A DNA stretch of 62,896 nt from the NCBI GenBank assembly GCA_948466315.1, contig CAOJZZ010000003.1, forward strand, positions 1-62,896, in the 5' to 3' direction. How positions within the stretch are numbered: position 1 is the first letter of the stretch; every line of letters starts with the position of its first letter. This document shows positions 8,750-30,850 of the stretch, in pieces. The position numbers and the translations under genes are program-made. Under the pieces are notes generated by a model that was not told the DNA's origin, searched no databases, and saw only the letters and a list, made by a program, of their open reading frames with translations. This DNA is from an uncultured Mycoplasmatota bacterium. GTDB lineage: Bacteria; Bacillota_I; Bacilli_A; RF39; UBA660.

Positions 8750-8881
8750 TTATCTAAATTGGCAACAAGAACCACATTGAACATTACTTACAGTATTTTC
8801 CTCAGAACAAGAATATTCAGGTCTATATGTATGTTTATAAATATGATGATTAATTATTCTTGTATGAATAGGACAAACATG
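8750..8881 (-). CDS. cotD: 3' half of interrupted CotD-like spore coat gene (HVCPIHTRIINHHIYKHTYRPEYSCSEENTVSNVQCGSCCQFR*)
   Basis: No start codon or RBS of its own; His/Cys-rich; continues the 17868-18074 ORF in frame when joined at CA; resembles B. subtilis CotD (VPHIHPQHTTNVNHQHFQHVHYFP). Confidence 0.85.
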   Translation of the reverse strand, partial: HVCPIHTRIINHHIYKHTYRPEYSCSEENTVSNVQCGSCCQFR

Positions 8882-8904
8882 TGTGTGCCCTTTTTTGATA
8901 GACT
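8857..8904 (-). repeat. attR-like junction (element arm AGTCTATCAAAAAAGGGCACACA, core CA at 8880-8881, cotD 3' arm)
   Basis: The 19-bp sequence tgcccttttttgatagact (8886-8904) recurs at 13739-13757; it starts 2 bp past the recombinase stop codon. Confidence 0.85.
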
Positions 8905-8906
8905 TT

Positions 8907-10469
8907 TTATTTACTAAAAGAAATCTTTATATTTATAGTTTTATCTTCAAATATTTCAATTCTATCAATTAAATTGATTATTAACTCTCTACTAGGTTCT
9001 TTCATGGATAAAAATTTATTAATATACTCGTTAATCATTTTATTTTTAGATTCTTCATTAATGTTATCATTAATACTATTATTTAACTCACTATATCTTT
9101 TTTGTTTTATATTTAGTTCATTTTCTAATTTTACTCTTACTCTTTCAAATTGTTCTTCAGTTATTTTCTTATTTAACTTATCAATATAAATAATATCTAA
9201 ATTATCATTTATTTGCTTAATGTCGTTAGTTAGTCTTTCTAACTCTTTTTTATTATTTAATTTATTATCTTCAGTTAAATTATTTAATACATTATTTTTA
9301 ATTTTATCTTTATTAATATAATTTAAGCAGATATTAGTTAATGAATTGATTATAACTTTCTCTAATTCATCATAGTTATTAGAATGAGTTGTACAAAGTT
9401 TTTGTTTCATATAAGTCCTATAATAATTGCAAATTGTATAACATCTATTATCTTTTTTTCTTCTGGATTGTATGGATATTCGATGTCCACAATTACCACA
9501 ATATAATAACCCATCTAATAAATGAATCTCTTTTTTTTCATTTCGCCCCTTATTTTTAGGCATTCTTTTTTGAACTTCATAAAATATTCCTTTATCTATA
9601 ATTGCTTCATGAGTATTTTCTACAACTATATAATCATTGGGATTATTTTTAATCACTTTTTTCACTTTATAATTAACTTTACTTCTTCTATTTTGTACCA
9701 TATCACCAATATACATTCTATTAGTTAAAATATCTCTTATGGTTTTTGAATGCCACTCTCCATATTTTAAATTGTAGTTATTTTTCCATTCAAAGTTATA
9801 GTATTGTGCTGGGGTTTTTATTCCTTCATTTGTAAGTTGTTTGGCTATTTTAAAGAATGATAAACCTTCTAAACACATATCAAATATTCTTTTAACAACA
9901 ATTGCTTGTTCTGGATTTATTACTAAATGATTTTTATTATCTTTATCTTGATCATATCCAAACGGAGTTCTTCCTCCAACCCATTTTCCTTCTTTCATTT
10001 TTGCTTTTAAACTAGATTTTATTTTTTTAGATATATCTTTAGCATACATATCATTCATAATAGCTTTAAATGGTGCAATGTCATTATTAGAATTATCTAA
10101 AAATGTATCTATATTATCAGTAACAGCTATATATCTAACATTATGTTCTGGAAAATACTTTTCGATTAAATTACCAGTACCAATATAATCTCTTCCAAGT
10201 CTTGACATATCCTTAGTAATAACCATATTTATTTTACCTAATTCAATATCAGTTAATAATCTATTAAAATCAGGTCTTTCAAAATTTGTTCCACTATATC
10301 CATCATCAATATAAATATCATATACTCTTAAATTATTTTCTTTAACATATTGAAGTAATAAGCTCTTTTGATTTGTAATACTCTCACTTTCTAAAGTTTT
10401 ATCATCATCTTCCCTAGATAATCTTATATAAAGTCCAACATTATATATCTTATTTAAACTCTCTAACAA
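8907..10469 (-). CDS. Large serine recombinase (module A)
   Basis: YIRLSRED catalytic Ser motif, DDGYSGTNFERP, KDMSRLGR, recombinase domain, LLYCGNCG zinc ribbon, coiled coil. Confidence 0.97.
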   Translation of the reverse strand: MLESLNKIYNVGLYIRLSREDDDKTLESESITNQKSLLLQYVKENNLRVYDIYIDDGYSGTNFERPDFNRLLTDIELGKINMVITKDMSRLGRDYIGTGNLIEKYFPEHNVRYIAVTDNIDTFLDNSNNDIAPFKAIMNDMYAKDISKKIKSSLKAKMKEGKWVGGRTPFGYDQDKDNKNHLVINPEQAIVVKRIFDMCLEGLSFFKIAKQLTNEGIKTPAQYYNFEWKNNYNLKYGEWHSKTIRDILTNRMYIGDMVQNRRSKVNYKVKKVIKNNPNDYIVVENTHEAIIDKGIFYEVQKRMPKNKGRNEKKEIHLLDGLLYCGNCGHRISIQSRRKKDNRCYTICNYYRTYMKQKLCTTHSNNYDELEKVIINSLTNICLNYINKDKIKNNVLNNLTEDNKLNNKKELERLTNDIKQINDNLDIIYIDKLNKKITEEQFERVRVKLENELNIKQKRYSELNNSINDNINEESKNKMINEYINKFLSMKEPSRELIINLIDRIEIFEDKTINIKISFSK

Positions 10470-10639
10470 TTCTTACCTCCTTCTAGAGATAAATAAGCAC
10501 ATGATGATGGTACCTCAAATTTTTTATTCTTACAAATTATTTGGATATATTTTTTAAGTTCCTTACTTAAAACTTTTATAAAAATATCATTTATATCATT
10601 ATTTTCATTATAGATATAATTAATTCTGTAATTATCCAT
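10463..10639 (-). CDS. Small protein coupled to recombinase A (MDNYRINYIY...), candidate directionality factor
   Basis: RBS GAGGTG; overlaps the recombinase start; homologous ORF at 15943-16107. Confidence 0.7.
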   Translation of the reverse strand: MDNYRINYIYNENNDINDIFIKVLSKELKKYIQIICKNKKFEVPSSCAYLSLEGGKNC

Positions 10640-10673
10640 AAATTTTGTACACCTCATTTAAACTTATGGATAA
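10632..10673. repeat. 10-bp inverted repeat TTATCCATAA/TTATGGATAA spanning the RBS and start codon of the small ORF
   Basis: Arms at 10632-10641 and 10664-10673; same arms at 16100-16140. Confidence 0.8.
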
Positions 10674-11096
10674 ATCACTAGTTTTAGTAATACTAAATCG
10701 TATAATATTTAAATTACACACATATTTAGTATTACTTATAAGCATTCGCTCTCTTTCTAATTATCATAAACATCATCTCCTTTTTGCATGATGCATGATA
10801 CCTCCACTAAGAAATTGAGTCAAGTCATAAAGTATAGAAAGTTTTATCTATCATCCTAAAAATATTCATAATTTAATAAATTATAAAACAGCAGGATAAG
10901 AAAATTGTGTATCAATACATAGTTTTCCTTTTAAAATAAAGAAAACTATATACACAATTCTTATTTCGTACTTACAAAATTCATCCTACTATGTAGGATG
11001 GTATTAAGGAAATACCCTTATTTTATAATAATTTATGCCATAAAAAAACATCCTAAAATTCTTAAATTAATAAAATTTATAGGATGATTAAATTTT

Positions 11097-12005
11097 TTAC
11101 TTAATATTTTTAACACTATCAAATGATGATATATAATCACTTACCCAATTATCAACAACAGACTCATCAATATGCAAATTACCTTGTCCAGTACCTAAGT
11201 TATGATTTATTTTTCTAGTTCCATGAAAATCACTACCTCCACTCATATACAGTTTTCTATCGTTACAAACACTTACTAAATAATCAGATTGTTCTTTTGT
11301 AAAAGTTGTATAAAAACACTCCAATCCATCTAATTCATAATTATTTATTATATTTAATAACTCATTTGCTATATTAGGAGAATAAGCAAAAGTATGTGCT
11401 AAAAAGGCAAGTCCTCCTGAATTATGTATCATTTGTATTGCTGTTTCTAAGCTAGGAAACAATGATGATTCATCAACATATAATGGACTTTTAGGATTAT
11501 ATACTTCATTCCTAGTAAATCCACTAGCTGTATTTATCGATTCTTGATTTAAGAAAAATTTATAATTTTCAGGATGTTTTTTTATTTCAATAGCAAATGC
11601 TGGTCTACAAGATTCAACTTTTGGATCAAATTTAATATTATTTTCATCAAATATTACTCCTATGGCATTATACCTATTTTTTATTAGATCATATTCTTTT
11701 ATTTGTTTTTGTTCAAATGAAAGTACATTAGCATCTAAAAATTTCTGCATAGTTTCTAAATCAAAACCATAACCTAATACCTCTATTGTTTCTCCCTTGT
11801 AAGTTGTAGTTATTTCAATTCCTGATATTATTTCTCCTTTAAACCTATATCTTATATTAGAATTTTGTAATTCAAAATGAGCTTGTATTGTATTATGATC
11901 AGTTATTGAAAGCAAACTCAAATTTAATTTTTGTGCTTCACTTAAAAGTTCATCTACACTAGAACTTCCATCAGAATATGTAGTATGTGAATGAATATCT
12001 ACCAT
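11097..12005 (-). CDS. PHP-domain phosphoesterase
   Basis: DIHSHTTYSDG, TDHN, GIEI, LAH, GGSDFHG metal-binding motifs. Confidence 0.92.
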   Translation of the reverse strand: MVDIHSHTTYSDGSSSVDELLSEAQKLNLSLLSITDHNTIQAHFELQNSNIRYRFKGEIISGIEITTTYKGETIEVLGYGFDLETMQKFLDANVLSFEQKQIKEYDLIKNRYNAIGVIFDENNIKFDPKVESCRPAFAIEIKKHPENYKFFLNQESINTASGFTRNEVYNPKSPLYVDESSLFPSLETAIQMIHNSGGLAFLAHTFAYSPNIANELLNIINNYELDGLECFYTTFTKEQSDYLVSVCNDRKLYMSGGSDFHGTRKINHNLGTGQGNLHIDESVVDNWVSDYISSFDSVKNIK

Positions 12006-12032
12006 GTATAAAACCTCCTTAAAATTAATATC

Positions 12033-12776
12033 TTATTGTATTTCAAAATTTAATAATTCCTCACAAATCTTTTCATATAAGTCTTGTTCATGTTTAATAG
12101 TATCAATTAAAAACATTTTATCATTTTCATATTCTTTTAAACCTCTCATATAATAAGGTTTATCATCATCTAATACAATAAATGGCATAATATTATTTCT
12201 TAAGCATTCTTTAAACATAATAATTCTTCCAACCCTGCCATTTCCATCTCCAAAGGGATGAATTTTCTCAAATTTATAATGAAAATCAATAATATCTTCT
12301 AAAGTAATATTAGTTTTTGCATTATATTCAAAAACTAATTTATCAATTTCTTTTTCTACATCTTCTGGTGCAGTTGTATTAATAACATTAACAAGACCTA
12401 TCATATTAGGAACTATTTTAAATCCTCCAACATTATATCTAGGATTTTCTTCATCACTAGTATTTCTTTTTAATATCTTATTCATTTTGATAATCATTTC
12501 TTTAGATAACTTATTATCAACATTATCTAACATATAATCAAATAATTTAAAATGATTCTTAGATTCAGTTAAATCATCTAATTTTATCAAATCATCACTC
12601 TTAGGAATAAAAGATGAAGTATCAAATATGGCTTCAGTCTGATCACTGGTTAACCTGCTACCTTCTATCTTATTTGAATTATAGGAAAAATTAACTTGTG
12701 AATAATGATATATATTTCCTTTAAACTTTGATTCTTTTTGGCTAATTAATTCTCCTTTTATTTTAGTTATATTCAT
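12033..12776 (-). CDS. Fic-domain protein
   Basis: HPFGDGNGRVGR active-site motif; N-terminal SNKIEG inhibitory motif (class II Fic). Confidence 0.93.
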   Translation of the reverse strand: MNITKIKGELISQKESKFKGNIYHYSQVNFSYNSNKIEGSRLTSDQTEAIFDTSSFIPKSDDLIKLDDLTESKNHFKLFDYMLDNVDNKLSKEMIIKMNKILKRNTSDEENPRYNVGGFKIVPNMIGLVNVINTTAPEDVEKEIDKLVFEYNAKTNITLEDIIDFHYKFEKIHPFGDGNGRVGRIIMFKECLRNNIMPFIVLDDDKPYYMRGLKEYENDKMFLIDTIKHEQDLYEKICEELLNFEIQ

Positions 12777-12801
12777 TAATCTTACATCCTTTCATTATTT
12801 A

Positions 12802-13626
12802 CTAATCATTATTTATATTTTTCATATACTCATATACCATATTTTTATAATCCAAAATAAATTTATTTTTTATTCTTTCTTCAACACAATCTAAATCTAA
12901 ATAGGGAGCTATATCTTCAATCTCTGTCAAAAGAAGTGTTCCATCCTTAAGTTTAATAAAGTCAATTCTTTGAATACCATAATAATTTTCATTTAATTTA
13001 GAAAATTCATCTGCTAATTTCATTTCATTTTCATTTGGTTCATATTTTATTGCATCGGGATAAATTGGAACTTTACTTGGAATAAACTCTAGTGCATATT
13101 CGAATTTATCTTTTATATAATAAAATTGTACCTCAGATTGAAATTCCATATATGGTTGAATTACATATGAATCAGTAAAGTTTTTTTCTAATTGTTGTTT
13201 GTCTACTACCATTTGTCCTATTCCATCATAACTATCTTTAAGCTTTAATAAAATTTTATTACATTTATCTAGTATTTGTAAATCTTCAATATTATCGACA
13301 GTTGGAATGACGGGATAGCCATTTTTATATAAACGAACAAGATATTCTTTGCTCTTTCCATCATATTTACCATCAAAATTAATACGTGGGAGATTTTTAT
13401 TAATGATTCTTAGTCGAAAATTAGATTTCTCTTTAATGGTTTCTATATTCGCATCAGTATCCCAAGTATTCCTTAACAAAAAAACATCAAATAAAGATTC
13501 AAGTTTTTCATCATAATTCTTATCAACTATCGCTACCTTATGACCATCTTTTTGAAAAGCTCTAGCAAGCCATATATCTTCTAATTTTTCATCTGCATCT
13601 ATATTACTAATCATTAAAATATTCAT
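12802..13626 (-). CDS. ATP-grasp fold (RimK/glutathione synthase-like) protein
   Basis: KEYLVRL..GYPVIPT, LKLKDSYDGIG, YVIQPYM, RIDFI, LLTEIEDIAPYL. Start refined to ATG 13626. Confidence 0.7.
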   Translation of the reverse strand: MNILMISNIDADEKLEDIWLARAFQKDGHKVAIVDKNYDEKLESLFDVFLLRNTWDTDANIETIKEKSNFRLRIINKNLPRINFDGKYDGKSKEYLVRLYKNGYPVIPTVDNIEDLQILDKCNKILLKLKDSYDGIGQMVVDKQQLEKNFTDSYVIQPYMEFQSEVQFYYIKDKFEYALEFIPSKVPIYPDAIKYEPNENEMKLADEFSKLNENYYGIQRIDFIKLKDGTLLLTEIEDIAPYLDLDCVEERIKNKFILDYKNMVYEYMKNINND

Positions 13627-13709
13627 AAGTATCACCTTCTATTTCATTATATCACACAAAAAGACATTTAAATGCCTTTAAATTTGTACTTATTCTCTCT
13701 TTAAAACTT

Positions 13710-13757
13710 AGTCTGTCATAAATTATCACACTTGTCCTTGCCCTTTTTTGATAGACT
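13710..13757 (-). repeat. Internal attP-like junction between modules A and B (AGTCTATCAAAAAAGGGCAAGGA-CA-AGTGTGATAATTTATGACAGACT)
   Basis: 48 bp with 23-bp arms around CA at 13733-13734; 4 mismatches to the attP reconstructed from the outer ends. Confidence 0.85.
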
Positions 13758-14077
13758 AAATTTCTATTATTCCATTTACTATATCAATAATTTCTTCTAA
13801 TTCATCTTCACATAGTTTTTCAACAAACGATAATTTTCTTACTTTAAAATCTACACTTCTAACATATTCACATAAAAATGAACCTTTTATTTTTTTAGTA
13901 TTTAAAAATTAAGAATTTTTTTGTATTTGTAGTTATAGGACATATTACAACTAGTCCTGTGTATTTGTTATAATTATCTTTACTAATAACTACTGCTGGT
14001 CTTAGTCCTGTTTGTTCATAACCAATTGTTGGTGCAAAATTCATATAACAAATATCTTATTGTTTTGGTAGATACAT
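13756..14077 (-). pseudogene. mazF: MazF/PemK toxin pseudogene
   Basis: MYLPKQ*DICYMNFAPTIGYEQTGLRPAVVIS...VVICPITT, then a frame break before GSFLCEYVRSVDFKVRK; premature TAA at codon 7. Confidence 0.88.
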
Positions 14078-14336
14078 TAATAAAACTTTTCCTTTCCTAA
14101 GTCTTCTCCCCAATCAAAAGCCTCAATACTACCTTTTTCTTCATCAGGTAATTTATTAAATTCTTCAAATCTTTCTTCTAATGTTTTATGTTTTATAGTT
14201 TGTTTTGATATTATAATTTTATCATTCTCTTGTATTAAATCTACTTTATCATTTGTCTTTAAATTAAGCGATTTTAAAATGCTACTTGGATTCTAATTCC
14301 ATCAGAATTTCCCCATTTTTGAAGTCTTGCTTCCAC
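14077..14336 (-). pseudogene. mazE: AbrB/MazE antitoxin pseudogene
   Basis: MEARLQKWGNSDGIRI followed by a 1-nt deletion; the shifted frame continues SSILKSLNLKTNDKV...FDWGEDLGKE; its stop overlaps the mazF ATG. Confidence 0.85.
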
Positions 14337-14402
14337 AATATCATATCAATTCATTCATAGTATATACAAAGTTTATACATTCGCCCTATTATTATATCCA
14401 AC

Positions 14403-15956
14403 TTAACCAAAACTTACTTTAATATTAACAGTTTTATCTTCAAATATTTCTATTCTATCAATTAAGTTAATTATTAATTCTCTACTAGGTTCTTTCATAG
14501 ACAAGAATTTATCAATATACTCTATTATAATTTTATTTTTTGATTGCTCACTTATAGTATCATTAATGTTATTATTTAACTCATTATATCTTTTTTGTTT
14601 TATGCTTAGTTCCCGCTCTAATTTTAATTTCACTCTCTCAAATTGGTCTTCGGTTATCCTTTTATTTAATTTATCAATGTAAATAGCATCTAAATTATCA
14701 CTTATTTGTTTAATATCAGTAATTAATATTTCTAACTCTTTTTTATCATTAACCTTATTAACTTCATCTAAATTATTTAATACATTATTTTCGATTTTAT
14801 CTTTATCAATATATTTAAGGCACATCTCAACTAAAGAATTAATTATAGATTTCTCTAACTTATCATAATTATTAGAATGAGTACTACACTTTTTTTCTTT
14901 CATATAAGTTCTATAATAATTACAAATTGTATAGCACCTATTATCTTTTTTCCTTCTCGCAAGAACAGATATTCTATGTCCACAGTCACCACAATATAAC
15001 AGTCCATCTAATAAATGATTCTCTTTTTTAGTACTTCTTCCTACATTTTTAGGTATTCGCTTCTGTACTTGATAAAATGTATCTTTATCAATAATAGCCT
15101 CATGTGTATTTGAAACTATTATATAATCACTTTCTTTATTTTTAACAACTTTTTTTACCTTATAATTTACTTTACTCCTCTTATTTTGAACCATATCTCC
15201 TATATATATTCTATTAGTTAAAATATCTCTTATCGTTTTAGCATTCCATTCTCCATATTTTAAATTATATTTTTTCTTCCATAAAAAACTATAATATTGA
15301 GCTGGTGTTTTAACACCTTCATTAGTTAGAATTCTTGCTATTTTAAAAAATGACAAACCCTTCAAACACATATCAAATATTCTTTTAACAACAATAGCTT
15401 GATTCTTATTTATAACTAAATAATTCTTATCATTCTTATCTTGTCTATATCCAAACGGTGCTCTACCCCCTACCCATTTTCCACACTTTTGTTTTGCTCT
15501 CAAACTAGATTTAATCTTTTTTGATATATCCTTAGCATACATATCATTCATTATTGCCTTAAAAGGTGCTATATCGTTATTAGAACTATCCAAAAACGTA
15601 TCAATATTATCAGTAACCGCTATATATCTAACATTATTCTCTGGAAAATACCTTTCAATTAAATTACCTGTGCCAATATAATCTCTACCAAGCCTAGACA
15701 TATCTTTAGTAATAACCATATTAACTCTACCTAATTCTATATCTTTTAATAGTTTATTAAAACCAGGTCTATCAAAATTAGTTCCTGAATAGCCATCATC
15801 TATATAAATATCATAAACATCTAAATTATTCTCTTTTACATACTGTAGTAATAAACTCTTCTGATTAATAATACTCTCACTCATAGACCCTTTATCATCA
15901 TCCTCACGAGATAATCTTATATAAACACCAACACTATATTTTTTATTTAAAAACAC
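14403..15956 (-). CDS. Large serine recombinase (module B), close paralogue of 8907-10469
   Basis: YIRLSRED, DDGYSGTNFDRP, LLYCGDCG; long identical stretches shared with recombinase A. Confidence 0.97.
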   Translation of the reverse strand: MFLNKKYSVGVYIRLSREDDDKGSMSESIINQKSLLLQYVKENNLDVYDIYIDDGYSGTNFDRPGFNKLLKDIELGRVNMVITKDMSRLGRDYIGTGNLIERYFPENNVRYIAVTDNIDTFLDSSNNDIAPFKAIMNDMYAKDISKKIKSSLRAKQKCGKWVGGRAPFGYRQDKNDKNYLVINKNQAIVVKRIFDMCLKGLSFFKIARILTNEGVKTPAQYYSFLWKKKYNLKYGEWNAKTIRDILTNRIYIGDMVQNKRSKVNYKVKKVVKNKESDYIIVSNTHEAIIDKDTFYQVQKRIPKNVGRSTKKENHLLDGLLYCGDCGHRISVLARRKKDNRCYTICNYYRTYMKEKKCSTHSNNYDKLEKSIINSLVEMCLKYIDKDKIENNVLNNLDEVNKVNDKKELEILITDIKQISDNLDAIYIDKLNKRITEDQFERVKLKLERELSIKQKRYNELNNNINDTISEQSKNKIIIEYIDKFLSMKEPSRELIINLIDRIEIFEDKTVNIKVSFG

Positions 15957-16107
15957 GTTTATCTCCTTCTAAAGATAACAAAAATCTATTCTTTTCCTTA
16001 CTAATCATATCAATATATACACTAATTTCTTTTTTTAAAACCTTAATAAAAATATCATTTATATCCTCCTTACCATTAAATATATAAGTAATTTTATAAT
16101 TATCCAT
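15943..16107 (-). CDS. 54-aa protein coupled to recombinase B (MDNYKITYIFNGKEDINDIFIKVLKKEI...), candidate directionality factor
   Basis: Manual translation; AGGAG RBS; homologous to 10463-10639; absent from the ORF track. Confidence 0.7.
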   Translation of the reverse strand: MDNYKITYIFNGKEDINDIFIKVLKKEISVYIDMISKEKNRFLLSLEGDKRVFK

Positions 16108-16140
16108 AAATTCAAACTCCTTATTTAACTTTATGGATAA
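16100..16140. repeat. Inverted repeat TTATCCATAAA/TTTATGGATAA over the RBS and start codon of small ORF B
   Basis: 11-bp arms; the loop sequence differs from the module A copy. Confidence 0.8.
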
Positions 16141-16230
16141 AATCCCAGTTTTATAATTTAAATTACTAAAAAATAATAAATATTTATATTAATCATTCTC
16201 ATATAATTCACATACTCATTAAAAATAATA

Positions 16231-16752
16231 CTACTTCCTAGTATGTCCTATTTTACCCTCTAAAAGATAATTATCCAAACTAAAGTTATCATCTACTCTT
16301 CCAAATGAATTTAAATAATTCTTAAAAGAATCATTATTAACTTCTACTACACCACTAGTAAGTAAATTAGATAAAAGATTCCTATCTATTTTATCCCCAG
16401 GCCATTCCACTAATTTTACAAGATTACTATTATCTTTCCTCACAAACTGGGAAAAACTCGGATTAATTAATAATCTCTTCATATTAGAATTAGTCATATA
16501 CTCAGCTATCAAAATAGTATGATCAACATACACTAAATCATTCAAATCTATTTTATAAGTATGAACCCCAGAAATATCTTGAACTATTCTATATTCTATT
16601 TGATTAGCCAAATATTTACAAAAGCCATCAAATTCCAAAACCTTATCAGCTAACTTTTCCCTCTCATCAAAAACTATTGCTTTTATATCTGCTTCTTTGT
16701 CCTTGCCTTCAATATTTAATATAGAATTATAAAAATCATATAAACTATTCAT
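16231..16752 (-). CDS. Hypothetical protein with a possible Cys-His-Asn/Asp (papain/transglutaminase-like) arrangement
   Basis: GFCKY ... DHTILI ... LINPSFSQF spacing. Confidence 0.4.
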   Translation of the reverse strand: MNSLYDFYNSILNIEGKDKEADIKAIVFDEREKLADKVLEFDGFCKYLANQIEYRIVQDISGVHTYKIDLNDLVYVDHTILIAEYMTNSNMKRLLINPSFSQFVRKDNSNLVKLVEWPGDKIDRNLLSNLLTSGVVEVNNDSFKNYLNSFGRVDDNFSLDNYLLEGKIGHTRK

Positions 16753-16880
16753 ATAATCACCATAATTATTATATCTTAAAAATACATTTTTTATCTATAT
16801 ATAAAATTTATTCTTATTTATCTTAATTTAGTTTACAAATAATTATCGTTTAACTAATTATTATAATTACTAAAAACCAC

Positions 16881-16909
16881 TTGAATTAATAAAAAAATAA
16901 AGTTATAAT
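16881..16909 (+). promoter_or_regulatory. sigA-type promoter of gmk
   Basis: TTGAAT-17-TATAAT, 22 bp upstream of the ATG; AAGGAG RBS. Confidence 0.65.
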
Positions 16910-16931
16910 TATCAACACAAAGGAGAATATT

Positions 16932-17624
16932 ATGGGAAATATTAAACAAAAAACTAGAGGAGACTTAATTATCATTTCAGGTACCACTTGTGCAGGTAAA
17001 GGTACCATCATTAGAAAACTTTTAAAAAAACATAATAATATTAAATTATCAATCTCTTATACTTCAAGGGCTATGCGTGAAGGAGATATTGATGGAGTAG
17101 ATTATTATTTTATTTCCAGAGAAGAGTTTGAAGAAAAAATCAAAAATAAAGATTTTTTAGAATATGCTACTGTACATGGTGAATATTATGGTACACCAAA
17201 AAAAGAAATTGAAAACATATTAGAAACTGGTACTGATGTCATACTAGAAATCGAAGTACAAGGGGCTAAACAAATCAAGGAAATGTTTCCTGAAACAATT
17301 TTAATCTTTATATTGGCACCTTCATTTGAAGAAGTAAAAAGAAGAATAAAAGCTCGTGGTGTAGAAAACAACGAACAAATAATCAAAAGATTTAAATCAG
17401 CCTATCAAGAAATAAATGAAATACCAAAGTATAACTATGTAGTCGTTAATGATGAAATTGATAATGCTTTATTAAAAATCGAATCTATTCTAATAGCTCA
17501 AAAATGCCGAGTAGACAGAATTGAGGAGATTGCTGTTGAAAATGAAGAAGAACTATTACATGAGTTTATTATGGATAAAGAATTTGATAATACTCCGATA
17601 AATTATAATAAGGATACCAATTAG
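16932..17624 (+). CDS. gmk: Guanylate kinase
   Basis: SGTTCAGKGT P-loop variant, SISYTSRAMREGDIDGVDYYF, YYGTP, ILEIEVQGA, YNYVVVND. Confidence 0.95.
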   Translation: MGNIKQKTRGDLIIISGTTCAGKGTIIRKLLKKHNNIKLSISYTSRAMREGDIDGVDYYFISREEFEEKIKNKDFLEYATVHGEYYGTPKKEIENILETGTDVILEIEVQGAKQIKEMFPETILIFILAPSFEEVKRRIKARGVENNEQIIKRFKSAYQEINEIPKYNYVVVNDEIDNALLKIESILIAQKCRVDRIEEIAVENEEELLHEFIMDKEFDNTPINYNKDTN

Positions 17625-17842
17625 TACCCTTATTTTTATTAGTCAAGTATGTCCTAAATCTATATAAATGATAGCCTATCATAATTTTAAGACTCATCAT
17701 TTTTTTAATATTATTCATTAATTTCAAAACTTAATAGTTTTTTACAAGTTAATTCAAACCAATCATGTTCATTCTTTATAATTTAAAAAATCTAATACTT
17801 CTTATCAAAATGACTTTAGTTTGATTTTCTCTTTCTATATTT

Positions 17843-17890
17843 AGTCTATCATAAATTATCACACTTGTGGAACTTCATGTACGAAAGTTC
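17843..17890 (-). repeat. attL-like junction (cotD 5' arm, core CA at 17866-17867, element arm AGTGTGATAATTTATGATAGACT)
   Basis: The arm matches 13710-13732 with 1 mismatch and ends in TGATAGACT, the inverse of AGTCTATCA at the other end. Confidence 0.85.
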
Positions 17891-18074
17891 TGTGAATACA
17901 TTTTTCTTGAACACCTTCATTTATTGAGTTAGAAAAATTCCCACCTTGCATCATCTGTTCCCCACTATAATTCATCATATTAATATCAACATTCATATCA
18001 TTTTCTACAACATTATTGTTACCCATAACAGAAGAATCAAAATCAAAATTTTGAGCCATATTTTGATCAAACAT
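17859..18074 (-). CDS. cotD: 5' half of interrupted CotD-like spore coat gene (ends ...CIHRTFVHEVP, then element-derived QV*)
   Basis: AGGAGG RBS; EKCIHRTFVHEVP aligns with CotD CEHHTFSKTIVP; the element arm supplies TGA TAA. Confidence 0.85.
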   Translation of the reverse strand: MFDQNMAQNFDFDSSVMGNNNVVENDMNVDINMMNYSGEQMMQGGNFSNSINEGVQEKCIHRTFVHEVPQV

Positions 18075-18096: not shown

Positions 18097-18105
18097 TATA
18101 GTATG
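18097..18105 (-). promoter_or_regulatory. Putative mother-cell (sigE/sigK-type) -10 element CATACTATA upstream of cotD
   Basis: Matches CATA-NNN-TA; no convincing -35 found. Confidence 0.4.
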
Positions 18106-18148
18106 TAAAAACTAATTTTTAGCTACTATGAAGGCCCAAATAAACCAA

Positions 18149-19544: not shown

Positions 19545-21779
19545 TTAACTAGTAACATCATCCAAAGATAAAGATGGAATAGAAGAAGACTCATTACTAT
19601 CACCTAATGGAACCATCTCAGGAATTCCTTGTCCTGCTACAGCATTAGTCTCAACTCCAACATTACTTACAACTTGCTGAGGCACTACTGGCTCAGGAGA
19701 AGTAGTCAAAGGAGCTGAACTGCTTATAGAAGATAAAGTAGCACTTGATGAATCCACTACATCCACTAACTTACTTTCTGTACTAGAAACAGAAGCTGAC
19801 GTATCTACACTAGAAGATTCTTCTTTCAAAGAAACATCACTAGGTATAACAAAAGAAGAATCAAAACTTTCAGACTTTTCATCACCAAACGCCATACTAG
19901 GCTCAATATTCATCTCTGGAATAGCATTTTGCGGCATTACCATATCAGCAGATGAATTAACTGAAGCAGTAGTAACCATACTATTATTATTAATTTCTGG
20001 AGAAACTCCATTATTATTAGACATAGTATTACCATTCCAAATAGTAACAACATCACAGTTACTACTCCAAGGAGCCGGATCAGGCATTTGCATCTTAACA
20101 ATTATTGGTATTCTAAATCCCATTCCAAAGCCTAAACAAGTTCCTGCTTGTAAGGTTTTCTGCTTCTCAACAATTTCATCACTAATATTTGGAACCATTT
20201 TTCGAATATATTCAACATCAACAGGGTGATTCATTTTAAATATCAAAAAATTAGAACATTGAGAGATAACTGTATCAGAAAGCTCAACAGGCCTTTGCGA
20301 AATAAGTCCTAATATAACTCCATATTTACGACCTTCCTTCGCTATTCTTTCAAATATATTATAACCAATTAAAAATCTATCTGTATCATTTTGAATATAT
20401 CTATGTGCCTCCTCAACAATTATATGAAAAGGAATACTCGCCCTATCTTTTAAGGCTTTAGCAAATTCAAAAACAAGTCTCGAGAAAATCTTCGTAATAA
20501 CTTTAGCAAAATCATCATCAACATCATCCAAATTAATATTAACAATTTGATATTTTTGCCCATTATTAATTAACATAGAAGACAAATAACTCTCCAAAGA
20601 AACATAATCTGGAACATCAAAAAATTTTGCATTGTTACCAACAATTAAAGCATGCAATCTAACACGAATAGTAACTGCATCACCATAAGTGTTCTCATTA
20701 CGTAACCATCCCTCACTAATTAAAGTAAAGTTCAAAGCTTTTTCCAATGTATCTAAAGTATAATAAACTCCACCTTGAGGCTCATAATCATCATACTCAC
20801 TATTAATAAATGAAGAAACATACTCAGTAAGTAAAACACTCTCTGCAAATTGTCCATCATTATTAATTAAGAATAATTCTCTAAACTTTCTAGTATAACC
20901 AATACCCTGTACAGGCGCTTCTAAATTAAACTCCGCTGTAGAACAACTAGCTAAAATAGAAAACACTTCATTTCTCTTATTAGGAGATGTTTCATTAGTA
21001 TAAAGAATTGTCATAATAGCTTTAGCAATCAAATGATTTTTATAATTATTAGCGTCCATATCATCCTGAGAAAAAATAAGTGCTAATTTTAACATTCTCT
21101 CAATAATAGGTAACTGTGAATGGTTAGTTGCTTGCAACAGTAATGCTAAATCTGTATAATTCAATAAAAATATAGGTAAACGTAACTTTTCTCCAATACC
21201 ATCAGCTTCATTAGTACTATAAAAACGATAATGATAATTTGGATTAATAGAATTAAGATTTTTAAAAGCATTGTAATATTCACCAGAAGAGTCAAAAAGC
21301 AAAATATTAGCTTTATAAGGAAACAATCTCTGATCATTAAACATATTTTGGAACAATCTAGAAATACCACAACTTTTACCAGAACCACTATTACCAAATA
21401 TAGCAAAATGATTACTAAAGAAACTATTAACGTCTAAAAAAACAGGATGATCATTATAGAAAGGACTAACACCTAACTGCATAAATCCTCTCTCATTTCT
21501 ACCAGTAACCATTGGTATTTCTTCTTTTTCAATAACTCTAATATGAGCATCTAAAGATGGCTTACGAATTGTTCCACCAATTAATCTACCATTAACTATT
21601 TCTCCTAAAAATCTAGCCTTAACAATATTACCATCTAAATCATCAACTTCACCCAAAACCTTTTTAGTATCATCCTCAAATATCAAATGTAAATTCATCA
21701 AATTAATAACAACATCCGTATCATCTTTTAATTTTATACTAGCAGAATGATCACTAATATAAGTAATTCTATCAAACAT
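19545..21779 (-). CDS. HerA/DUF87-type ATPase with long Ser/Val/Pro-rich C-terminal tail
   Basis: HAS-barrel-like N-terminus, GNSGSGKS Walker A, IVEEAHRY Walker B, KEGRKYG, SQRP. Confidence 0.85.
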   Translation of the reverse strand: MFDRITYISDHSASIKLKDDTDVVINLMNLHLIFEDDTKKVLGEVDDLDGNIVKARFLGEIVNGRLIGGTIRKPSLDAHIRVIEKEEIPMVTGRNERGFMQLGVSPFYNDHPVFLDVNSFFSNHFAIFGNSGSGKSCGISRLFQNMFNDQRLFPYKANILLFDSSGEYYNAFKNLNSINPNYHYRFYSTNEADGIGEKLRLPIFLLNYTDLALLLQATNHSQLPIIERMLKLALIFSQDDMDANNYKNHLIAKAIMTILYTNETSPNKRNEVFSILASCSTAEFNLEAPVQGIGYTRKFRELFLINNDGQFAESVLLTEYVSSFINSEYDDYEPQGGVYYTLDTLEKALNFTLISEGWLRNENTYGDAVTIRVRLHALIVGNNAKFFDVPDYVSLESYLSSMLINNGQKYQIVNINLDDVDDDFAKVITKIFSRLVFEFAKALKDRASIPFHIIVEEAHRYIQNDTDRFLIGYNIFERIAKEGRKYGVILGLISQRPVELSDTVISQCSNFLIFKMNHPVDVEYIRKMVPNISDEIVEKQKTLQAGTCLGFGMGFRIPIIVKMQMPDPAPWSSNCDVVTIWNGNTMSNNNGVSPEINNNSMVTTASVNSSADMVMPQNAIPEMNIEPSMAFGDEKSESFDSSFVIPSDVSLKEESSSVDTSASVSSTESKLVDVVDSSSATLSSISSSAPLTTSPEPVVPQQVVSNVGVETNAVAGQGIPEMVPLGDSNESSSIPSLSLDDVTS

Positions 21780-21985
21780 ATTACTATCCCCTCAATTCTT
21801 TCCTATCCTCATAATATACTAAAATTATATCTTATTTTAAAATGATTGACAAGAAATTTTAAAAATAACAAAAAAGATGTCATCATTCAAATAAAAACAA
21901 TAACACCAAAACCTTATAAAATAAATCAAATTCAAAGCTATTATCCTTATATATCATTTAGTTATAAACATCACAATTTCAATTA

Positions 21986-22279
21986 TCAAATCAATTCTTC
22001 TAGCTGTTTTTTTATAAAATCATTATCTAGCTCTTTTATAATATCCTTCAATTTCTGTTTCTTTTTATATAATTGTAATTTATCTTCATATTCCTGTAAT
22101 TTTTGAATAACAATATGTAATTGTTTAAAAACAGCATTTCTGCTAACTAAATAATTAGAAGAAATCTCCGAATAACTTAAATTATTAAAATAATAATCTT
22201 CAAAATAATTTTTTTGTTTCTCAGTAAGTAATTCCCCATATAAATCATATAACTCATTGTAATAAAATAACTCTTCCAA
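21986..22279 (-). CDS. ylxM: YlxM/UPF0122 DNA-binding protein
   Basis: LYDLYGELLTEKQ..YY..NLSYSEI...VSRNAV; lies between ftsY and ffh. Confidence 0.9.
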   Translation of the reverse strand: MEELFYYNELYDLYGELLTEKQKNYFEDYYFNNLSYSEISSNYLVSRNAVFKQLHIVIQKLQEYEDKLQLYKKKQKLKDIIKELDNDFIKKQLEELI

Positions 22280-22282
22280 ACA

Positions 22283-22579
22283 CTACACTCCCAACAAACC
22301 AAGAAAAAGAAAAATTAATAACATAAAACCAATAATTCCATATAAAATAGTAGCTCCTACCCTTTTATAAATAATTTGATTATTATATGCCATTACTAAT
22401 AAGGTTACTCCTAGTGATAATTGCAAATAGTTAAATAACCTTGTATTAAATATAAACAAAACAAATACAATTAACGTAAGAATTGTCATCACTATCTGAA
22501 AATCTACAAATAAAATATTAAATCTATTAATTATAGAGGCACTTTTATTACTTTCTTTCTTATCATTATTTTTACTCAT
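22283..22579 (-). CDS. Small membrane protein of unknown function
   Basis: Three hydrophobic segments; operonic with ftsY-ylxM. Confidence 0.6.
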   Translation of the reverse strand: MSKNNDKKESNKSASIINRFNILFVDFQIVMTILTLIVFVLFIFNTRLFNYLQLSLGVTLLVMAYNNQIIYKRVGATILYGIIGFMLLIFLFLGLLGV

Positions 22580-22586
22580 AATACAC

Positions 22587-23672
22587 CTACATCATATCTT
22601 TGAATAATCCATAAATATATTTTTCAATATCAAATACTTGTAAATCTTCTTTTGCCTCACCAAGTCCTATATATTTTACTGGTAAGCCAACACTCCCTTT
22701 AATAGCCAAAACTATTCCTCCCTTAGCAGTTCCATCTAACTTAGTAAGGACAATACCTGTAATGTTTGTAATAGATTTAAACGATTTTGCTTGACTAATT
22801 CCATTCTGACCAGTAGTAGCATCCAAAACTAACAATGTTTCACTGGCCCCACCTTCAATCAAACCATCTATTACCTTATTCATCTTTTCTAGTTCTTTCA
22901 TTAAATTAACTTTATTTTGAAGTCTTCCAGCAGTATCAATTAATACTACATCATACTCATCCTTAATAGCCATCTCGATTCCATCATAAACAACACTTGC
23001 TGGATCACTTCCTTCTTCTTTACCAAAAAATGAAACATCTACTTTAGTACTCCATTCCCTTAATTGTTCAATCGCTCCAGCACGAAAAGTATCAGCAGCA
23101 ACCAATAAAACTTTCTTTCCTTCTTTTTTTAAAGAATAAGCAATTTTACCTATAGTTGTAGTTTTTCCTACCCCATTTACTCCAACAAATAATATTGCAG
23201 TAGGACCATTCTCATTATAGTTTATTTTGCTACTTAACACTGAATCATTAACATAAATAATAAACAACTCATCAACTATAATTTCTTTTAACATTTCAGG
23301 ATCCGTTAAATTTTCAGACTTCACCCTAGATCTCATCCGATCAATAAAGTCCATAACTGTCTCAACACCAATATCAGCCATAATAAGAATTTCTTCCAAT
23401 TCCTCAAAATATTCTTCAGTAACTTTACTATATTTATTGGTAAGATTTGCTAATTTAGAAATAAATCCCTGTCGTGACTTAGTTAATCCTTTCTCATATA
23501 TTTTAACAGATTCTTTTTCTTCTTTTTCCTTTGGCTCTTTTAAGTCAATAGTTTCCTCAGATATACCTATCCCATCTGATAAAGATTCATATGTATTACC
23601 CAAAAGCTCTTCTTCTACTTTATCAGTCTCATTACCCTTAAACATATTCTTTATCTTATTAAATAATCCCAT
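22587..23672 (-). CDS. ftsY: SRP receptor
   Basis: GVNGVGKTT, DTFRAGA, DTAGRL, TKLDGTAKGG. Confidence 0.98.
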   Translation of the reverse strand: MGLFNKIKNMFKGNETDKVEEELLGNTYESLSDGIGISEETIDLKEPKEKEEKESVKIYEKGLTKSRQGFISKLANLTNKYSKVTEEYFEELEEILIMADIGVETVMDFIDRMRSRVKSENLTDPEMLKEIIVDELFIIYVNDSVLSSKINYNENGPTAILFVGVNGVGKTTTIGKIAYSLKKEGKKVLLVAADTFRAGAIEQLREWSTKVDVSFFGKEEGSDPASVVYDGIEMAIKDEYDVVLIDTAGRLQNKVNLMKELEKMNKVIDGLIEGGASETLLVLDATTGQNGISQAKSFKSITNITGIVLTKLDGTAKGGIVLAIKGSVGLPVKYIGLGEAKEDLQVFDIEKYIYGLFKDMM

Positions 23673-23963
23673 TTATATCACCTACTAATAGTATAACATG
23701 CAAATACTATGCCTACAACCAAACAAACAAAAAAACCAAGAAGATATCTTGGAATTAAAATCATTATTTTTATCTAAAATATTAATTTACCAAATATTTT
23801 ACTCAATACATCTACACATTTCATAGTAAATTCAATATGATTAAAAATAAATAAAACATTTGATAATTAAATCAGCATTAAATCACTTAAAACTATTTTT
23901 TATCTTTTTTGACATAAAGATTCTTTTCTTCACGAAATATAGAATTGTTTTGAATACTACCCA

Positions 23964-29806: not shown

Positions 29807-30850
29807 CTACTTTTCAGATTCCTTTTTCTTAGCATCAGTCTTATCTAAGGCTATATCATAATATTCTCTAACCTTAGCCTCAATTTCATTTCTAAGTTCA
29901 ATATTATCTTTAAGTAACAATTTAACATTTTCCTTTCCTTGACCAAGCTTCTCACCTCGATAAGAATACCAAGCTCCTGTTTTATCAACAATAGAAGCAT
30001 CAGCTGCTAAATCTAAAATCTCTCCTTCACGCGAAACGCCTTCACCATACATAATATCAACAACAGCACTCTTAAAAGGTGGAGCAACTTTATTTTTAAC
30101 AACTTTAATAGTAGTCTTATTTCCAACAACTCCATCACCCATCTTAAGTTGTTCATTTCGTCTAATATCCAAACGAATTGTTGAATAAAATTTCAAAGCT
30201 CGTCCGCCAGGTGTAGTTTCAGGATTACCAAACATAACTCCCACCTTTTCACGCAATTGATTAATAAAAATACATGTAGTTTTAGTCTTATTAATTGTTC
30301 CAGATAATTTTCTAAGTGCTTGAGACATAAGTCTAGCTTGCAAACCAACATGCGAATCTCCCATTTCACCATCAATTTCGGCCTGTGGGACCAAAGCCGC
30401 AACAGAATCAATAACAATAATACTAACTGCTTCGCTACGAACTAAAGCTTCGCAAATTTCCAAAGCTTGCTCTCCTGTATCGGGTTGTGATAACAACAAC
30501 TCATCGATATTAACTCCTAATCTTTCTGCATAAACTGGATCAAGAGCATGCTCAGCATCAATAAATGCTGCCCTACCACCAGCCTTCTGATTCTCTGCAA
30601 TAGCCTGCAAAGCAAAAGTTGTCTTACCACTAGATTCTGGACCATAAATTTCAATAATACGTCCTCTAGGATAACCACCGACACCCAAAGCGATATCTAA
30701 CGATAAACACCCACTAGAACAAACATCTACTTTCATATGCTTATTATCTCCAAGCTTCATAATAGATCCTTTTCCAAATTGTTTTTCAATCTCACTTAAC
30801 ACTTGATCTAAAGTTTTATCTTTAGAATCATTCTTACTTACTGTTTTCAT
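29807..30850 (-). CDS. recA: Recombinase A
   Basis: [28 protein letters not shown]. Confidence 0.99.

Follow-up and report, generated by a model that had tools for sequence, protein, structure and literature searches.

A split cotD-like gene

The window, that is, the whole 62,896-nucleotide stretch of DNA analysed, contains a small His/Cys-rich, cotD-like gene, the two halves of which lie on the minus strand on either side of an 8,986-bp insert. The halves and the upstream promoter-like element were located as follows:

8750..8879, minus strand: cotD-like 3' half, from T of codon 70 to the stop (HVCPIHTRIINHH...CGSCCQFR-stop)
17866..18074, minus strand: cotD-like 5' half, codons 1-69 plus CA of codon 70
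18097..18126, minus strand: sigma-K-type promoter-like element, GTAGC, 16 nt, then CATACTATA; -10 box at 18097-18105

The 5' half ends ...GAA GTT CCA CA/A GTG TGA TAA (core 17866-17867), and in the unexcised state its reading frame continues into the element and stops there (Q-V-TGA-TAA, at 17859); a Q(V/E)-stop-stop ending after the 5' half is supplied by all elements of the family. The 3' half has no start codon of its own and begins CA/T GTT TGT CCT... (core 8880-8881). We joined 18074..17866 to 8879..8750 in silico at the CA dinucleotide, which removed 8,986 bp and restored a 339-bp ORF encoding 112 aa, with the attB junction GAAGTTCCACATGTTTGTCC. The sequence-only reading had described both junctions, this ORF and the 8,986-bp release, and had attributed the split to a large-serine-recombinase element; the CA join proved exact, CA crossover restores the frame exactly, and two large serine recombinase genes were found inside the insert.

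The joined protein matched 904 homologues (101-133 aa) end to end, with 100% coverage and E values down to 1.5e-61. These homologues are uninterrupted, and the residues at the join (HEVP/HVCPIH) are invariant or nearly so among them. At the DNA level, alignment of the joined flanks with the uninterrupted locus of a relative was gap-free at the join, and the two loci have the ffh ... rpoZ-recX synteny in common. The proposed check for relatives with an uninterrupted gene was thus borne out by full-length homologues and by a colinear empty-site locus, and the agreement of the joined ORF with its homologues is far beyond chance.

The claimed resemblance to CotD held in part. Against the Pfam profile Spore-coat_CotD (PF11122) the joined protein scored 17.6 bits (E 0.0058), below the gathering threshold of 22 bits, and more distant relatives scored 19-21 bits, so that all matches seen were sub-threshold. 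The profile was nevertheless the sole recurring match, found in 14 of 15 family members with E no better than 5e-4. We therefore use the name CotD-like and make no assignment to CotD.

The insert consists of two stacked units

The sequence-only reading had taken the insert for a single element of about 9 kb. The results revealed instead two units placed head to tail and separated by an internal P-CA-P' site. Unit B spans 4,133 bp and unit A 4,853 bp, and the att sites are as follows:

8880..8904, minus strand: attR, P arm of unit A (AGTCTATCAAAAAAGGGCACACA, 8882-8904) plus core CA (8880-8881)
13710..13757, minus strand: internal attP-like junction, P arm of unit B (13735-13757), core CA (13733-13734) and P' arm of unit A (13710-13732)
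17843..17867, minus strand: attL, core CA (17866-17867) plus P' arm of unit B (AGTGTGATAATTTATGATAGACT)

CA is the sole sequence common to attL, the internal site and attR. The unit-B attL arm also occurs at attL of six other loci, and unit-A-type elements of other hosts have the P' arm of unit A (..ATGACAGACTAAGTT) at their attL; the arm sequences place P'_A and P_A with unit A. Among 401 family genomes, the internal P-CA-P' junction was the only true site of this kind. As the earlier reading had noted, the arms of the reconstructed circle junction are attP-like, being symmetric at 17/23 positions with a 9-bp perfect terminal repeat (counted by hand). The central dinucleotide and the imperfectly palindromic att sites of roughly 40-50 bp are those of a large-serine-recombinase crossover, and the boundaries of the B-only allele described below and of unit A in other hosts coincide exactly with CA.

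Each unit comprises its own large serine recombinase, located at the edge toward the 3' gene half, a conserved small ORF upstream of it and a variable cargo slot. The two recombinases are 82% identical, and all three Pfam domains (Resolvase, Recombinase and zinc ribbon) scored above cut-off in both of these proteins of about 500 aa. Unit B contains the following features:

13895..14292, minus strand: decayed mazE-mazF toxin-antitoxin remnants (mazE-like 14080-14292, mazF-like 13895-14044)
14403..15956, minus strand: large serine recombinase B, 517 aa (Resolvase + Recombinase + Zn_ribbon_recom)
15943..16107, minus strand: small ORF B, 54 aa, overlapping the recombinase B start; candidate recombination directionality factor
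16231..16752, minus strand: cargo protein of unknown function, 173 aa, without Pfam, PHROG or PADLOC match
16932..17624, plus strand: guanylate kinase gene (gmk) in the cargo slot, Pfam Guanylate_kin E 4e-51

The gmk of unit B was the only gmk match in this 71%-complete metagenome-assembled genome and had an omega of 0.017 against a sister species, compared with 0.17 for recombinase B. Homologues of the 173-aa protein lie in host context in other lineages. The maz remnants matched MazE_antitoxin (E 1e-4) and PemK_toxin (E 2e-12), each with partial profile coverage. The features of unit A were as follows:

8907..10469, minus strand: large serine recombinase A, 520 aa, stopping 25 bp short of the attR core
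10463..10657, minus strand: small ORF A, 64 aa (58 aa in other gene calls), overlapping the recombinase A start; candidate directionality factor
11097..12005, minus strand: PHP-domain cargo protein, Pfam PHP E 2e-9
12033..12776, minus strand: Fic-domain cargo protein, Pfam Fic E 3e-14
12802..13635, minus strand: cargo protein of unknown function, 277 aa, no family match; 99% identical at two other loci

Recombinase A matched the PHROG integrase family (E 5e-115), among solved chains the catalytic domain of TnpX comes closest to it, and it is 96-99.8% identical in other hosts. The Fic protein matched PDC-S04 in PADLOC (E 2.7e-99), and also SoFic, which makes its gene a candidate anti-phage defence gene; an identical protein is present in 134 blocks of the collection, with at least three host contexts among the places shown. 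The small ORFs belong to a conserved M(D/N)KYKINYIY..DINDIFIKVL family. Of 15 elements inspected, 13 have such an ORF (34-64 aa) immediately 5' of the recombinase and overlapping its start. No family match was obtained for them in Pfam or PHROG, and their position makes them candidate directionality factors.

A prophage or prophage-like identity of the insert was rejected, since the PHROG search detected no phage structural, packaging or replication genes in it; apart from integrase and guanylate kinase, the only matches were to Fic families without known function and, weakly, to PHP. By gene content, the elements are non-phage and integrative.

Natural alleles and mobility of the units

In two other samples of the same species, we found a B-only allele at 99.8-99.9% identity, in which unit B meets the 3' half exactly at CA (...GGGCAAGGA-CA-TGTTTGTCC). 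The stack itself was present in a second assembly at 99.3% identity. The presence of unit A is thus polymorphic within the species, with B-only and B+A alleles, and the locus shows the features of SCC-type stacking: complete units, an internal att copy, and independent gain and loss.

Unit A was 95.7-98.6% identical at the nucleotide level to elements in other hosts, in which unit-A-type elements are single, and the homology starts exactly at the internal core. The flanks of these other hosts are only 68-76% identical at the nucleotide level, and RecX is 40% identical at the amino acid level; such near-identity amid diverged flanks points to a recent arrival of unit A. Unit B is common to the sister species. 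Both horizontal mobility and natural crossover products at CA are therefore observed. Unit B would be the old resident, and unit A would have come recently by horizontal transfer and recombined with the P-CA-B' junction (attR) of unit B, thereby leaving the P_B-CA-P'_A site between the units.

Recurrence in the family and selection on the split gene

A recombinase element was detected at the same codon in at least 19 of 166 genera of the family, probably RF39 (about 11% or more). The recurrent recombinases are 44-91% identical and lie directly 5' of a 3' half starting at residue 68-70, and the att arms are conserved. The recombinase was at the 3'-fragment edge in 14 of the 18 related elements with a 3' junction read; three of the four exceptions end at a contig edge just upstream. 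The smallest elements in relatives measure 3.7 kb, and units with a single recombinase stand alone in other genomes.

Compared with the sister species, the 5' half carries 10 synonymous and 2 conservative non-synonymous changes (omega 0.03, binomial P about 8e-7), a test that covers 71 codons of one species pair and presumes an orthologous insertion in both. For the same pair, dS was 0.53-0.63 for unit B genes and 0.38-0.63 for host genes. All 19 interrupted 3' halves examined were open and conserved, with an omega of about 0.26; this exceeds the 0.12 of sampled intact genes, the two sets being unmatched. Of 201 family genomes, 35 lack the gene and a few have it as a pseudogene, which shows that it is not indispensable. 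The substitution patterns indicate purifying selection on both the split gene and the recombinase.

Promoter and sporulation context

Of 94 family members, 81 have a CATAnnnTA box 25-33 nt 5' of their ATG (shuffle mean 3, maximum 9). Between the split gene and its counterpart in the sister species the -10 box is unchanged, and the promoter region differs at 5 of 75 positions overall, with a single difference in the conserved 62-nt core from GGGCC to ATG. No sporulation-type promoter was recognised 5' of the small ORF and recombinase.

SpoIVA is encoded within the window, Spo0A was found in 18/18 family relatives, and there are two sigma genes of SigE/SigK type. The cotD-like gene is not the only one affected in this genome: a recombinase element also splits the late sporulation gene yabG. 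The host is most likely a member of the order RF39, an uncultured small-genome lineage of gut Bacilli, and the cotD-like gene is probably a late spore-coat-type gene that depends on sigma K, as its promoter-like box suggests. Purifying selection, together with the conserved sigma-K-type box, argues for reconstitution of the gene; since the broken gene evolves like a working one, the elements are probably excised from it precisely at spore formation.

Possible mechanism and alternative explanations

We consider it probable that the split gene is still needed, and that the recombinase or recombinases and a small protein restore it in the mother cell while the elements are kept in the spore. One or both recombinases, with the small protein, would recombine attL with attR at the CA core, either directly or in two steps through the internal site, releasing one or two circles. 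On the model of skin, gin, SPbeta and yin, excision would occur in the terminal mother cell and the spore chromosome would keep the elements; we infer the mother-cell timing from these systems, and any pairing of a recombinase with particular sites is likewise presumptive. Mature spores carry the unrearranged forespore chromosome. The restored junction would therefore be expected only in sporulating mother cells, and the ethanol-resistant or spore fractions, which had been proposed for the search, would be the wrong place to look.

A plain mobile-element insertion, in which the HEVPHVCPIH-coding stretch is an attachment site, a dispensable coat gene has been inactivated and sporadic excision serves transfer without any link to sporulation, appears unlikely. 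It would fit the active mobility of unit A (96-99% identity between hosts whose flanks differ strongly), the loss or decay of the gene in some genomes, the recombinase operon without a recognisable sporulation promoter, and the absence of the restored junction from all assemblies; the protein collection likewise held no intact allele of this species (best match 84% identical), and no attP-type junctions turned up when metagenome contigs from JGI and viral contigs were scanned. An inactivated gene is hard to reconcile with the 10 synonymous against 2 non-synonymous changes in the 5' half of two unit-B species, with the conserved promoter, or with 19/19 intact 3' halves. The splitting of yabG, a second late sporulation gene, in the same genome also speaks against it, as does the occupation of about 11% or more of the genera despite strong constraint (omega 0.12), which suggests a low cost of insertion.

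Less likely again is a reversible on/off switch, not bound to the mother cell, that operates in a fraction of growing cells and yields coat heterogeneity in the manner of phase-variation-like "active lysogeny". B-only and B+A alleles do coexist in nature, one contig stops exactly at the att core as a branch in an assembly graph would give, and excised yin circles of Clostridium botulinum were present at all time points (PMC10747680). Against such a switch, no intact allele appeared in about 20 contigs from many samples, the sigma-K-type promoter would keep the target silent in growing cells anyway, and loss of unit B, which holds the only gmk detected, would be costly for dividing cells. A misjoining of gene halves or units during assembly or binning could be suspected in a 71%-complete genome of 79 contigs, the more so as 82%-identical recombinase genes break many assemblies. 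This explanation has practically no probability left: among the contigs listed, about 20 independent ones, which come from at least 12 other samples, repeat the junctions, attL, the internal site and attR each being crossed at 99.3-100% identity, which excludes an artefact; the B-only junction and its alternative have only 3 nt in common at the switch point, so k-mer assembly cannot have made it.

Mother-cell restoration of the cotD-like gene may form part of something wider. The cotD-like gene and yabG are both split in this genome, and two LysM-repeat genes may be split as well. We tentatively raise the possibility, which we hold with some doubt, of a small germline/soma rearrangement programme in RF39-type gut bacteria, in which several late sporulation genes would be kept split by miniature serine-recombinase cassettes and restored only in the mother cell, stacking would arise by a normally forbidden attP x attR reaction, and the captured gmk would act as an addiction device through a housekeeping gene. 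If so, gmk capture would make germline loss of the cassette costly.

Comparison with known systems

So far, intervening elements in sporulation genes have been known in only a few strains of Bacillus and Clostridium, all of them cultured. The same principle is now seen in an uncultured gut lineage, for which sporulation is predicted only from gene content, and the selection that acts on the split gene speaks indirectly for sporulation in these bacteria. The target gene is new, and the elements are small and are present at the same codon in more than one-tenth of the sampled genera; no report of a cotD-like target or of such a system in this lineage was found in the literature searched, in line with the earlier reading. 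The stack and the B-only allele preserve an event seldom documented in nature, the action of a serine integrase on a site already filled (attP x attR, or the opposite reaction), and bear on the directionality rules behind the use of serine integrases in genome engineering. The recombinases, small ORFs and att sites of roughly 50 bp, available in diverged versions with their natural substrates, may also serve as a source of orthogonal integrase-plus-directionality-factor pairs.

In staphylococci, tandem and composite SCC cassettes stack at orfX through the CcrAB large serine recombinases and leave internal att copies. The present units likewise stack at one chromosomal site with an internal att copy and come and go independently. 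SCC cassettes depend on CcrA and CcrB together, and the gene at whose 3' end they insert is not inactivated, whereas here each unit has one recombinase, with no CcrA/CcrB-type pair, and the stack splits a coding sequence.

As is typical of skin, SPbeta, vfbin, vrin, gin and yin, the insert carries its own recombinase at the 3'-fragment edge and its removal restores the frame exactly. The skin element interrupts sigK, with SpoIVCA as recombinase, in B. subtilis, C. difficile and 12 further species (bioRxiv 10.1101/2022.02.25.481979). Elements of both families have nothing but the recombinase in common and carry variable cargo. Skin, however, is prophage-derived, measures 14.6-48 kb and gates the whole late programme through the regulator sigma K, whereas the elements described here are smaller, non-phage and interrupt a structural coat-type gene. 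The yin prophage was found in yabG of a single strain, Clostridium botulinum V73 (PMC10747680); it resembles our elements as a serine-recombinase element in a coat-related gene (yabG acts in coat maturation in the SigK regulon and is split here too) and differs from this non-phage family, which occupies the same codon in many genera. A further parallel is gin, a 28.6-kb element with three recombinases in gerE of Bacillus cereus ATCC 10987, for which excision during sporulation by the recombinase GirC plus the 42-aa GirX has been demonstrated (PMC5595907). Like our insert, gin is a non-phage element with more than one serine recombinase gene in a small late mother-cell gene, its short-core crossover restores the frame, and its excision needs a very small accessory protein, for which the small ORFs are the candidates here. 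Unlike gin, which is one element, the present insert, known from its sequence, comprises two complete 4-5 kb elements joined by an attP-like site, in a cotD-like target gene of an uncultured RF39-type Bacilli host.

Joined at CA, the halves of the cotD-like gene give a conserved frame

The cotD-like gene consists of two pieces that share the dinucleotide CA (17866-17867 and 8880-8881).

Pieces of the split gene (window coordinates)
18074..17859, minus strand: 5' ORF, 71 codons, ending ...GAA GTT CCA CAA GTG TGA TAA
8881 (start of CAT GTT TGT CCT) to TAA at 8752-8750, minus strand: 3' piece, an orphan open frame without a start codon
Predicted restored junction (attB): GAAGTTCCACATGTTTGTCC

Joining the pieces in silico at the common CA deleted 8,986 bp and yielded a 112-aa protein. 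When the metagenome-assembled genome (MAG) holding the window was searched with this protein, just two pieces matched, covering residues 1-73 and 69-112. The joined protein had 904 homologues of about 101-133 aa (coverage 100%, identity up to 84%), among which the residues flanking the join (HEVP|HVCPIH) were invariant or nearly so. On a 273-kb contig of one relative, the intact gene has ffh and one extra ORF on one side and rpoZ-recX on the other, surroundings that match those of the window, and the joined window flanks aligned to this locus at 77% nucleotide identity with the join ungapped. These results confirm the split gene and the 112-aa frame that the sequence-only reading had proposed. 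The protein-collection search returned no intact allele of this species among assembled sequences.

The proposed resemblance to CotD stood in part: Pfam CotD was the sole recurring family, but the matches seen fell under its threshold. The "CotD" of C. difficile is a catalase and is unrelated. The AlphaFold model of the joined protein (87 sequences) had a mean pLDDT of 54 and a pTM of 0.14 and was devoid of secondary structure; residues 51-100, which span the join, alone reached about 70 pLDDT, and the model was too weak for a fold search.

Two stacked elements occupy the gene

The insert had been read as a single ~9-kb element. It instead comprises two elements, with two recombinases and a complete attP-like site between them: unit B, next to the 5' half (attL), and unit A, next to the 3' half (attR). 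The arms on either side of a CA core are called P and P', and the small ORF before each recombinase is a candidate directionality factor gene.

Features of the two units (window coordinates)
Unit B, 4,133 bp: attL, gmk, 173-aa ORF, small ORF B, recombinase B and decayed mazEF
14403-15956: recombinase B, large serine recombinase with Resolvase, Recombinase and Zn_ribbon_recom in full
13710-13757: complete internal attP-like site, in gene orientation AGTCTATCAAAAAAGGGCAAGGA-CA-AGTGTGATAATTTATGACAGACT
Unit A, 4,853 bp: 277-aa ORF, Fic, PHP, small ORF A, recombinase A and attR
8907-10469: recombinase A, large serine recombinase with Resolvase, Recombinase and Zn_ribbon_recom in full
Predicted circle junctions: whole stack, GGGCACACACAAGTGTGATAATTTATGATAGAC; unit B, GGGCAAGGACAAGTGTGATAATTTATGATAGAC; unit A, GGGCACACACAAGTGTGATAATTTATGACAGAC

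The two recombinases were 82% identical, and the Fic protein of unit A matched the candidate defence family PDC-S04 (E 2.7e-99). A prophage identity was rejected because phage genes were absent from both units. Equating the 173-aa gene of unit B with the 183-aa gene between ffh and cotD in relatives was likewise rejected, since they had no similarity. An Rfam scan detected no known RNA families in the element.

Apart from the gmk gene inside unit B (16932-17624), no guanylate kinase gene was detected in the MAG, which is 71% complete. This gmk was 53-57% identical to the gmk genes of relatives, which sit in varied host contexts, and a gmk match was missing from 5 of 12 family genomes. On the minus strand at 10690-10740, small ORF A is preceded by a long hairpin (GUAAUACUAAAU ... 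AUUUAGUAUUAC), within a 161-nt region with a folding z-score of -4.6. This hairpin, which had no Rfam match, also occurred in the related elements L099, L105 and L115, and could be an operator, attenuator or terminator.

Samples of the species are polymorphic for unit A

The species was present in SRR36555103, SRR36555131, SRR36555135, SRR36555136, SRR16832009, SRR35841363 and SRR22050017, in the runs behind ERZ15143663 and in JGI 3300006217. An exact-protein look-up placed the 71-aa 5'-half protein on 21 contigs. In all ten places listed, from ten different samples, it was followed by gmk and, where the contig was long enough, by the 173-aa ORF, small ORF B and recombinase B. Seven aligned contigs carrying the 5' half were 99.9% identical to the window. 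The stack itself is real: recombinase B, the internal site and unit A all lie on one contig of another assembly, which matches the window at 99.3% identity.

An exact RpoZ look-up revealed contigs of this species (99.8-99.9% identity) from two further samples that carry unit B alone. In their junction, ...AGTCTATCAAAAAAGGGCAAGGA-CA-TGTTTGTCCTATTC, the 3' gene half follows the unit-B P arm, with CA as the exact point of fusion. An assembly artefact would have had to switch between alternatives that are common over only 3 nt at the switch point, so the assembler could not have made this junction. The species is thus polymorphic for unit A, with the crossover at CA as predicted.

Two further sample differences were observed. 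In two other samples (L131 and L132), the gmk-to-173-aa-ORF sequence departed from the window at 16852 and continued as a repeat with two copies elsewhere in the MAG (C27:18992 and C61:9661), probably an insertion-sequence polymorphism inside unit B. In SRR22050017, a contig of this species (L151) stopped exactly at the attR core (window 8883), as an assembly-graph branch would make it do if more than one junction form were present in that sample.

Selection on the split gene

A sister species (L167; sample SRR27304200) carries the same order of ffh, 5' half, gmk, 173-aa ORF, small ORF, recombinase and mazE. Synonymous divergence between the two species was 0.53-0.63 for unit-B genes and 0.38-0.63 for flanking host genes. 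This similarity indicates that the element most likely predates the split of the two species.

The usable selection test was this sister-species comparison, as a family-wide dN/dS comparison of split and intact genes is confounded by unequal sampling. The 5' half differed by 10 synonymous changes and by 2 non-synonymous ones, both conservative (V to I, E to D), giving an omega of 0.03 (binomial P 8e-7 against neutrality; one species pair, 71 codons). Omega was 0.17 for recombinase B and 0.017 for the strongly constrained gmk. The promoter region had 1 difference in its conserved 62-nt core (GGGCC to ATG) and 5 in 75 nt overall. Across the family, all 19 interrupted 3' halves examined were open and ended at the normal stop. 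Their pairwise omega was about 0.26, compared to 0.12 for the intact genes sampled; the two sets were unmatched for divergence and unequally sampled, so little weight is placed on this difference. Among the computational arguments for a reconstituted rather than a dead gene, this selection pattern (71 codons, a single species pair) is the strongest.

Unit A is mobile and probably joined a resident element

Unit A was traced in other hosts by its exact Fic protein, in place of the 277-aa cargo protein; 134 blocks of the collection list a Fic protein identical to it. Single elements in other hosts were 95.7-98.6% identical to unit A at the nucleotide level, whereas their flanks were only 68-76% identical to the window, and the flank proteins had amino-acid identities of 67-83% (Ffh), 52-71% (RpoZ) and 40% (RecX). 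Homology to unit A started exactly at the internal core of the window. The attL arm of these unit-A-type elements equals the P' arm on the unit-A side of the internal site, and their attR arm (GGGCACACA) equals the attR arm of the window. Unit A is clearly horizontally mobile.

Unit B is old, and unit A has near-identical counterparts elsewhere. In the simplest history, unit A entered the attR of a resident unit B. Such an integration would be a non-canonical attP x attR reaction. In the reverse history, a stack would lose unit A precisely, using the same site pair. Among 401 family genomes, no other true internal attP-like site was found. Three 2-mismatch matches in these genomes were rejected as chance, being inside unrelated coding sequence with no recombinase nearby.

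In another host (L142-L145 and L147, about 11900-12720), a unit-A-type element with the other type of P arm (CAAGGA) was observed to carry a NERD/Zn-ribbon gene between its recombinase and attR. This element may be a recombinant, or the remnant of a second stacked unit without a recombinase.

Related elements interrupt the gene at one codon

We surveyed 201 genomes of the family, one per genus, and the cotD-like gene was present in 166. In many of these it appeared as a lone 3' piece starting at residue 68-70 or as two pieces a few kb apart. Twenty such regions were fetched, and the 3' junction was readable in 18. In 14 of the 18, the 3' half was immediately preceded by a co-oriented recombinase (44-91% identical to recombinase A); in the other four, the contig ended just upstream (three) or the recombinase lay about 6 kb upstream (L115). 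The small ORF, M(D/N)KYKINYIY..DINDIFIKVL.., overlapped the recombinase start in 13 of 15 elements examined.

Conserved attachment arms of the family
attL arm: ...CCA-CA-AGTGTGATAATTTATGATAGAC
attR arm: GTCTATCAAAAAAGGGCAAGGA-CA-TGT

All 5' halves read ended in Q(V/E)-stop-stop, an ending supplied by the P' arm. Elements ranged from 3.7 kb to about 9 kb with variable cargo, and at least 19 of the 166 genera were occupied, the window included. Among 50%-identity representatives of 15 billion proteins, many truncated forms were found, ending at residue 69-74 or starting at 68-70.

Sporulation context and promoters

In 81 of 94 members of the cotD-like gene family, CATAnnnTA precedes the ATG by 25-33 nt (shuffles: mean 3, maximum 9), with a GT..C element 16 nt ahead of it. 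CATAnnnTA matches the sigma-K -10 consensus of B. subtilis. An alignment of 12 elements revealed no convincing sigma-E or sigma-K box before the small ORF; all that could be recognised there was a hairpin and ATAAGTTTAAGTGAGG, a partly conserved stretch that takes in the ribosome-binding site.

Besides the split coat gene, the window contains an intact spoIVA (45775-47271, 365 bits). The SigK model matched two SigE/SigK-type sigma genes at 281 and 253 bits, scores under the equivalog cut-off. Spo0A was missing from the 71%-complete MAG and present in all 18 relatives of the family. A published gene-content survey predicted RF39 to be spore-forming (PMC10868615). By analogy with known gene-intervening elements, excision would take place in the mother cell, and spores would keep the chromosome unrearranged. 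Pattern scans of JGI metagenome contigs (two) and viral contigs (one) found no attP-type junctions; the P' arm of unit A would have escaped the overly strict first pattern, and a second, looser pattern also had no match.

A second split gene, further candidates and recombinases in the genome

The sporulation protease gene yabG (Peptidase_U57) was also split in this MAG, on contig C1, into pieces at 19881-20396 and 29935-30234. Between these pieces, which are separated by about 9.5 kb, lie two large serine recombinase genes (20648-23711). In B. subtilis, yabG belongs to the SigK regulon (PMC10747680). With yabG, interruption in this genome extends to a second late sporulation gene.

On contigs C22 (14033-15583) and C52 (2703-4244), recombinases 55% identical to recombinase A were followed, 2 nt past the stop codon, by a start-less open frame encoding LysM repeats (..VSGDTLW..). 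These frames may be further split genes with the attachment site inside the LysM motif. Overall, the 1.5-Mb MAG held at least 15 large-serine-recombinase genes or fragments, on contigs C1, C2, C3, C4, C9, C22, C32, C38, C41, C43, C51, C52 and C59.

Comparison with known systems

The literature searched held no paper on B. subtilis-type cotD as a target or on serine-recombinase elements in RF39, in agreement with the earlier impression that neither had been reported. The finding holds up and turns out richer than its first description; it represents a new target gene and a new host lineage for a known class, the sporulation gene-intervening elements. It adds a natural two-element stack, a polymorphism within the species by which CA is fixed as the crossover point, a clearly mobile unit and a split gene that, on evolutionary evidence, appears to be still in use. 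The stacking resembles composite SCC cassettes. A recombinase at the edge adjoining the 3' fragment is common to this family and the skin elements. Of the systems described so far, gin, within the B. cereus gene gerE, comes closest: it is a non-phage element with several serine recombinases and requires a 42-aa directionality factor (PMC5595907).
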